A DNA stretch of 13,047 nucleotides from a virus (Duplodnaviria > Heunggongvirae > Uroviricota > Caudoviricetes). The stretch lies in IMG/VR virus record IMGVR_UViG_2529292837_000006; one strand, given 5' to 3'. The notes beneath the pieces were generated by a model. It was not told the origin of the DNA and ran no database searches. It saw only the letters and a list, made by a program, of their open reading frames with translations. This document shows, piece by piece, positions 8,001 through 8,462 of the stretch. A program made the position numbers and the translations under genes. Each line of letters begins with the position of its first letter. Positions within the stretch are counted from its first letter, which is position 1.

Positions 8001-8462
8001 GGTTCTGGGAAAATTGTCCGCCAACCAGATTGAAGGCGATCTCGTTAAAACGGTGGGCAAAGCTTTCCCCCGGGACTCCCGTGCACCGGAGCGGTGGCCA
8101 TCAGGAACCATTACCGTCAGGGTTTATGACGATCAGCCGTTTGACCGGCAGATTGTTATTCCGGCGGTGTTATTCCGCGGCGGTAAGCATGAGAATTGAA
8201 CAGTAATAACCAACAGTCATACTGGTATTCAACCTGCCGGTTAAGAGTGACCGGAAAAACGGTGCTGAAATTTATAACCGTCCGCGCTGGATGCTAGGCT
8301 GATTTACAGTGGCGTTATTGATATGCCTGCCGGTCACGGTCACATGACACTGGAGTTTTCGGTGTCAGCATGGGTGGTAAATAACTGGATCCCACAGCCA
8401 GTATCAGCGATCTGCTGGTTGTGGTGATGAAAAAATCCACAGCAGGTATCAGTATCAGCTGA
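5060..8462 (+). pseudogene. J: Tail tip / host-specificity protein J (lambda gpJ-like) broken by multiple frame disruptions
   Basis: ATG at 5060 preceded by GGAG; N-terminus MGKGSSKGHTPREAKDNLKSTQLLSVIDAISEGP is J-like. Coding continuity passes through three ORF fragments 5060..6031 (frame 2), 5931..6776 (frame 0) and 6817..8199 (frame 1), with a short frame-2 stretch about 6748-6815 ([21 protein letters not shown]) between the last two. After the stop at 8197-8199, J-like coding continues with in-frame stops (frame 1: VIDMPAGHGHMTLEFSVSAW about 8311-8370) and ends in frame 0 with ...SISDLLVVVMKKSTAGISIS and TGA at 8460-8462. Total span 3403 nt, close to lambda J (3399 nt). Confidence 0.8.

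Follow-up and report, generated by a model that had tools for sequence, protein, structure and literature searches.

In phage lambda, the tail module has the gene order H-M-L-K-I-J-lom-stf-tfa, and the C-terminal domain of the tail-tip protein gpJ (TipJ) is encoded at the 3' end of J, right before a terminator and lom. In the intact phage, this receptor-binding domain is located at the tail tip and binds an outer-membrane receptor of the host. Genuine J remnants in cryptic lambdoid prophages typically show large deletions, IS insertions and a load of substitutions, and are reproducible between assemblies. Collapsed-repeat errors of short-read drafts are of another kind: a multi-copy region is represented by a short stand-alone contig which alternates between alleles, and the lesions lie only at sites where the paralogues vary and differ between sister assemblies. 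The module described here has the lambda gene order, and its J C-terminal domain is likewise encoded at the 3' end of J before the terminator and lom. In contrast to lambda gpJ, its reading frame is interrupted four times in 200 nt, and its patchwork of two alleles was found nowhere else in the finished E. coli genomes and the IMG/VR database searched. It resembles the decayed J genes of cryptic prophages in that J cannot be translated as one ORF while lom, stf and tfa are kept, but differs from genuinely decayed J in having only 1-bp drops at polymorphic sites and no substitution load. It shares with the collapsed-repeat errors all the properties just listed, and goes beyond the familiar cases, which show a chimeric SNP pattern alone, in that bases are dropped. 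We consider it very probable that the damage at the 3' end of J is a draft-assembly error which arose from the collapse of similar prophages and not from biological decay.

The window, that is, the whole stretch of DNA that was analysed, is the entire 13,047-bp contig AQGH01000026.1 of the draft assembly GCA_000356085.2 of Escherichia coli 2735000 (ETEC). The strain is a CS7-expressing ETEC isolate which was studied alongside Bangladeshi ETEC strains (PMC6301781). The contig carries a lambda-type tail module on the + strand which is collinear with annotated gpJ in finished genomes. The ORF map assigns H to 79-2658, M to 2655-2984, K to 3687-4430, I to 4427-4999, stf to 9187-12420 and tfa to 12420-13004, and lom, which encodes the Ail/Lom outer-membrane beta-barrel protein, is an intact 199-aa ORF at 8529-9128. 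The minor tail gene L (2984-3681) is split into two ORFs, 2984-3331 (115 aa) and 3289-3681 (130 aa). J, which encodes the tail tip attachment or host specificity protein, extends in full over 5060-8462 and consists of the ORFs 5060-6031, 5988-6776 and 6817-8199 and an out-of-frame tail. H, K, I, lom, stf and tfa are thus intact in the same contig as the broken J and L. In tblastn comparisons, the intact J alleles A and B found in related genomes cover residues 1-1132 in collinear pieces of changing frame, and the 3403 nt of 5060-8462 together with 11 dropped bases fit a J of about 1137 aa.

The interval 8199-8462, which at first sight separates J from lom, codes for the C-terminal ~88 residues of J, the lambdoid tail-tip protein, and these form part of the receptor-binding domain PF12421. 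The preliminary description had recognized it as the 3' end of J and had suggested as a check a tblastn search with the last 250 aa of a J protein. Run with the allele B J of E. coli 90-9280, this search gave three collinear pieces in 8200-8462 with a joint E of 6.7e-27: 10 residues at 8252-8281 in frame 2, 38 residues at 8281-8394 in frame 1, and PTASISDLLVVVMKKSTAGISIS at 8391-8459 in frame 0, after which comes TGA (8460-8462). One more piece, 18 residues at 8199-8252 in frame 0, is absent from the preliminary description and matches allele A. DNA alignments agree with these pieces. The coding sequence of 8199-8462 is divided among four frame segments by four missing bases at ~8196, 8252, 8282 and 8389. 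The first segment (8199-8252, frame 0, 18 residues) belongs to an allele-A-like block and is entered through the loss of a base at ~8196 (AAT[T/C]TG), in a column which reads T/C/gap in 25/18/17 of the natural alleles used for comparison; the same loss creates the TGA at 8197-8199. The second (8252-8281, frame 2, 10 residues) is allele-B-like and begins where a C has been lost at 8252/8253 (ACC[C]GG), precisely on the switch from A to B and at a length-polymorphism edge. The third (8282-8388, frame 1, (T) and 35 residues) is mostly allele B with single A-like sites and begins with a base missing after 8281 (CGT[A]CC; T/A/C = 25/19/16). The fourth (8389-8462, frame 0) is again allele-A-like, encodes (Y)PTASISDLLVVVMKKSTAGISIS up to the stop at 8460-8462, and is entered through the loss of a base at 8389 (TGG[T]AT; A/T/G = 41/19/2), at the switch from B to A.

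With these four single bases put back, the C-terminal 137 residues match the whole PF12421 profile (Tip attachment protein J, C-terminal receptor-binding domain; positions 1-135 of 135) with E = 4e-36, and the repaired C-terminus scores 124.5 bits for this family (Ig_GpJ_C) against a cut-off of 26.2. The match lies at the extreme 3' end of J in a lambda-type tail module and is followed by lom; as deposited, the frame of the domain is interrupted by the four frameshifts between 8196 and 8389, and there are more upstream. A repaired C-terminal query of 259 residues aligns over approximately its whole length with solved J structures, namely 9wca (E = 2.8e-135) and lambda J (8iyk, residues 879-1131, E = 4.5e-95). 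When intact, the sequence belongs to the gpJ/TipJ family as one of its ordinary members, and its receptor-binding domain is of a known type.

The description of the interval in the preliminary description was thus largely borne out, as distinct from its interpretation. There is no ORF of at least 60 aa between 8199 and 8529, and the sole ORF of at least 40 aa is a 41-aa antisense ORF at 8315-8440; frame 1 does contain the stops TGA at 8197, TAA at 8242 and TGA at 8248. The peptides in shifting frames are present as well, with KNGAEIYNR starting at 8255 instead of 8258 and VIDM at 8314 instead of 8311, and the frameshifts it had reported number four rather than two or three. The nonsense changes which it had proposed in addition were not confirmed, the interval being free of nonsense substitutions. 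The TGA at 8197 exists because one base of AAT-(T/C)TG is missing, so that AAT-TTG or AAT-CTG is read as AAT-TGA, and the stops at 8242 and 8248 are merely out of frame because of the shift at ~8196. Nor did its main proposal, the biological inactivation of the segment determining receptor specificity, hold up, given that the drop-outs lie on paralogue-variant sites in a draft contig made of two alleles and that no other assembly reproduces these lesions.

Since the J C-terminal match reaches 8462, the true J-lom spacer comprises only 8463-8528. This 66-bp spacer contains a terminator-like structure at 8480-8509 (+), formed by the hairpin GGGCGTCA-GAAA-TGACGCCT (8480-8499) and a T tract, and the hairpin sequence is identical in allele A. 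A separate functional element between J and lom, such as a small gene, an sRNA or a regulatory region, could be suspected from the lack of a long ORF in the J frame and from the 41-aa antisense ORF. The interval is collinear throughout with the 3' end of intact J alleles, and the antisense ORF is contained in conserved coding sequence of J; neither an Rfam family nor a promoter-like site was found in the interval. The chance of a separate element is therefore negligible, the idea being effectively refuted by the collinear homology to J.

The frame breaks are not limited to the 3' end of J. In well-aligned sequence, each frame break in the contig corresponds to one missing base, and there are no insertions. 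L is split by the loss of one base after 3265 (GAT[C]TGCAG). In J, five bases are dropped within 22 nt at 5966-5987 (+), with flanking SNPs toward another allele, and single bases are missing after 6749 and 6812 (6749-6813, +) within a patch of SNPs at 6659-6840 which also point toward another allele. Compared with the nearest A-type sequence, that of the IMG/VR record L008, this patch comprises the SNPs 6659, 6716 and 6728, the drops 6749 and 6812, and the SNPs 6828, 6834 and 6840. These positions were compared with a panel of 81 natural alleles (80 IMG/VR loci and allele B), in which a site was taken as polymorphic if it had at least 10 alternative bases; 17% of sites form the background. 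The column of the L deletion reads C/A/T = 49/17/3, all five dropped bases at 5966-5987 are on sites with 10-77 alternative bases among the 81 alleles, and the columns of the drops after 6749 and 6812 read C/T = 56/25 and 58/23. All eight deletions upstream of 8000 thus fall on polymorphic sites (P = 7e-7 against the 17% background), and when the deletions of two sister drafts are pooled with them, 28 of the 33 distinct deletion sites do so (P = 3e-17). The lesions therefore follow the polymorphism of the paralogues, and they are not accompanied by substitution decay: 15 of the 24 tiles (300 bp each) that make up 2401-9600 match an intact natural allele at 100% identity, and the remaining nine contain a lesion, a mosaic patch or a single-base difference, so that tiles free of both lesions and mosaic patches are natural or one base off. 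Two simpler sources of error were considered and rejected. Most drops lie outside homopolymer runs, which speaks against a homopolymer-type error as the general cause, and random sequencing error spread evenly over the contig does not agree with six intact genes, with most tiles being 100% natural and with lesions tied to variant sites.

The finished ETEC relatives TW10828, 90-9280 and ETEC-2264, which represent the closest lineage, have 3-5 places each for this module. Intact J alleles are present in them, A with 1132 aa (locus L002) and B with 1160 aa (loci L001 and L005), and L is intact too. Over 1500-5000 and 10500-13047, the only base by which the contig differs from the A module is the one missing at 3265. 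A three-way alignment shows alternation between A and B over the 3' end of J and lom: a B-like block at 7857-8166 (72 informative sites) is followed by an A-like block at 8170-8251, a B-like block at 8253-8397 interspersed with isolated A-like sites (8280-8281, 8293-8294, 8374 and 8389), an A-like block at 8399-8714, and a B-like patch of 27 sites in lom at 8721-8909, after which the sequence is A-like again. The frameshifts at 8252 and 8389 lie exactly on allele switches, and the other two lie on columns which differ between A and B. Since the B-like patch in lom is embedded in A-like sequence, the lom protein encoded by the contig may likewise be chimeric and have no counterpart in the strain.

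Sister draft assemblies from the same submitter's series provided a further view of the module. The truncated 115-aa L product is also encoded in AQDN01000069.1 (L006) and AQDG01000087.1 (L007), so that three drafts of the project have the 3265 drop in common; in the finished genomes of the lineage, L is unbroken. In the same module, L006 lacks 16 and L007 lacks 30 bases, all as single-base deletions, which break L, K, J and stf at positions partly shared with the window (among them the sites at 5966-5987) and partly different; almost all of these deletions, too, are on paralogue-variant sites. J in L006 has an intact 3' end which agrees with allele A at 100% identity over 772 nt, from which it follows that the natural state of J in this lineage is intact. 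L008 lacks two bases at sites which are also dropped in L006 and L007 and probably belongs to the same assembly series. Taken together, the dropped bases look like a systematic problem of one series of assemblies.

We searched for the same mosaic and the same lesions elsewhere. In finished E. coli genomes, 8140-8320 gave no full-length match above 79%, and the best match to 7900-8530 was 91.6%, without the mosaic. The mosaic was not found in GenBank phages (best match 91.1%) or in the 80 IMG/VR loci (91.5%) either. The hybrid junction was absent from 5,426 finished genomes, and the 28-mers across the hybrid junctions occurred 0 times in IMG/VR, both with the restored base and without it, in a search in which the positive control worked; the pure-B 28-mer occurred there at least 120 times. 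Among the 15,248 copies of J present in 4,571 finished E. coli genomes, no copy has the lesions at 5900-6900, and every match to this 1001-nt query among the matches listed spans 1008 nt. A search of 5.8 billion proteins with the repaired C-terminus returned none above 88% identity among the matches listed (proteins of at most 345 aa), and the top matches inspected were all pure B-type. According to an exact-protein look-up, the three J fragments occur on AQGH01000026.1 only. No finished genome thus carries the lesions, and the sister drafts differ in theirs.

Several readings of these data have to be weighed. A genuine pseudogene, that is, a defective prophage in which J and L were lost via approximately a dozen independent 1-bp deletions and the receptor-binding end is dead, has several points in its favour: in the deposited contig J is in at least six frame pieces and L in two, GenBank annotates the pieces as separate proteins, the L lesion is common to the assemblies of three strains, and defective lambdoid prophages are common in E. 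coli. Decay in the organism, however, does not explain why deletions occur almost exclusively where prophage paralogues differ (P = 7e-7 to 3e-17), why five of them are crowded into 22 nt with no insertion in well-aligned sequence, or why substitution decay does not accompany them. The different lesion sets of the sister assemblies in the same module, the absence of the lesions from finished genomes and the intactness of H, K, I, lom, stf and tfa on the same contig speak against it as well, and we regard this reading as highly improbable. The deletion at 3265, being common to three assemblies, could, taken alone, be read as a real inherited mutation. The alternation of alleles calls for another comparison. 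The B-A-B-A mosaic could be a real recombinant J which arose recently by gene conversion between co-resident prophages; either it is a new allele and errors of sequencing or consensus are limited to the single-base drops, or it was freshly inactivated. J 3' ends are recombination hot spots, both parental alleles coexist in related genomes, and the four restored bases yield an open frame with a full-length PF12421 match. Since mosaic J alleles are common in nature, the patchwork alone is no proof of an artefact.

What argues against a recombinant is the scale and the company of the switches. The alleles are mixed at single sites, with isolated switches at 8181, 8280-8281, 8293-8294 and 8374, and the stretch GAT-GCT-AGG-CTG has elements of A, of B and of neither parent. 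Drops and switches coincide, in the same context the sister contig L006 has pure allele A, and the hybrid junctions were not found in the 5,426 finished genomes, in IMG/VR or, among the matches listed, in the protein search. We therefore hold a real recombinant to be unlikely, whether as a new allele or as a freshly inactivated one, if somewhat less so than the pseudogene. As a new allele, it would give the strain an intact J whose receptor-binding domain is novel. The collapse of similar prophages during assembly would account for both the deletions and the alternation. Like its finished relatives, strain 2735000 would carry several lambdoid prophages with near-identical tail modules, two or more of which the assembler would have merged into one contig. 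At disputed sites, the consensus would either flip from one allele to the other, which would produce the B-A-B-A patchwork over 7850-8530, or emit no base, which would leave a 1-bp deletion and a shift of the frame; the same process would have produced the other breaks of J (5966-5987, 6749 and 6812) and that of L (3265). The structure of the contig is consistent with such a collapse: it is a 13,047-bp stand-alone contig of a module which occupies 3-5 places in the finished relatives and has a presumed multiple copy number in 2735000, its consensus alternates between co-resident alleles, and its errors are at variant sites. We infer that strain 2735000 itself carries both J alleles, and the base drops were presumably caused by the consensus step of the assembler. 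The broken L and the apparent decay at the receptor-binding end of J would then both be artefacts. The broken reading frame of J is most likely attributable to the assembly rather than to the organism, and the real J genes of strain 2735000 are most likely intact and ordinary members of the gpJ/TipJ family.

Read as the product of a collapsed repeat, the decayed J end is most likely no real biological feature, and its main significance is as a warning about database quality. Owing to bases dropped wherever paralogous prophages differ, the tail genes of prophages in at least three public drafts of one ETEC project would contain spurious frameshifts, and a fourth record, L008 of IMG/VR, probably contains them too. 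Fragment "proteins" have entered GenBank from such contigs (e.g. EMZ70236.1 and EMZ70238.1), and in pseudogene surveys they are open to misreading as prophage decay or as the loss of host-range determinants.

Some further observations were made on the module and on J proteins in databases. The J C-terminal region of the allele-A type is near-identical to PDB entries 9wca and 9wcb ('A8 gpJ 713'), including a 31-residue stretch, and 9wca therefore offers a structural template for a non-lambda receptor-binding domain. Among database J C-terminal proteins, three (P0001, P0002 and P0003) are unusual: one has a 30-residue tandem duplication, and in the two others, which come from Logan assemblies, an unrelated N-terminus is fused to a J C-terminus. 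These oddities are further evidence of frequent mis-assembly of the J C-terminal region. The 5' part of H (1-1267 of the window) is unlike the reference alleles A and B; over 1-1064 it is 95.4% identical to A, and ~1064-1267 gives no alignment to A and contains about 130 private columns. H has 859 aa here versus 853 aa in a related finished genome. The 5' part could represent a third allele or more mixing of alleles. Public gene calls also include two antisense ORFs without a Pfam match, one of 249 aa (9690-10439, -) opposite stf and one of 57 aa (9129-9302, -) opposite the lom-stf junction, both of which are probably spurious. Finally, the Rfam family IS009 (RF02111) matches at full length with 229.5 bits at 12763-12961 (+), within the tail fibre assembly gene tfa.
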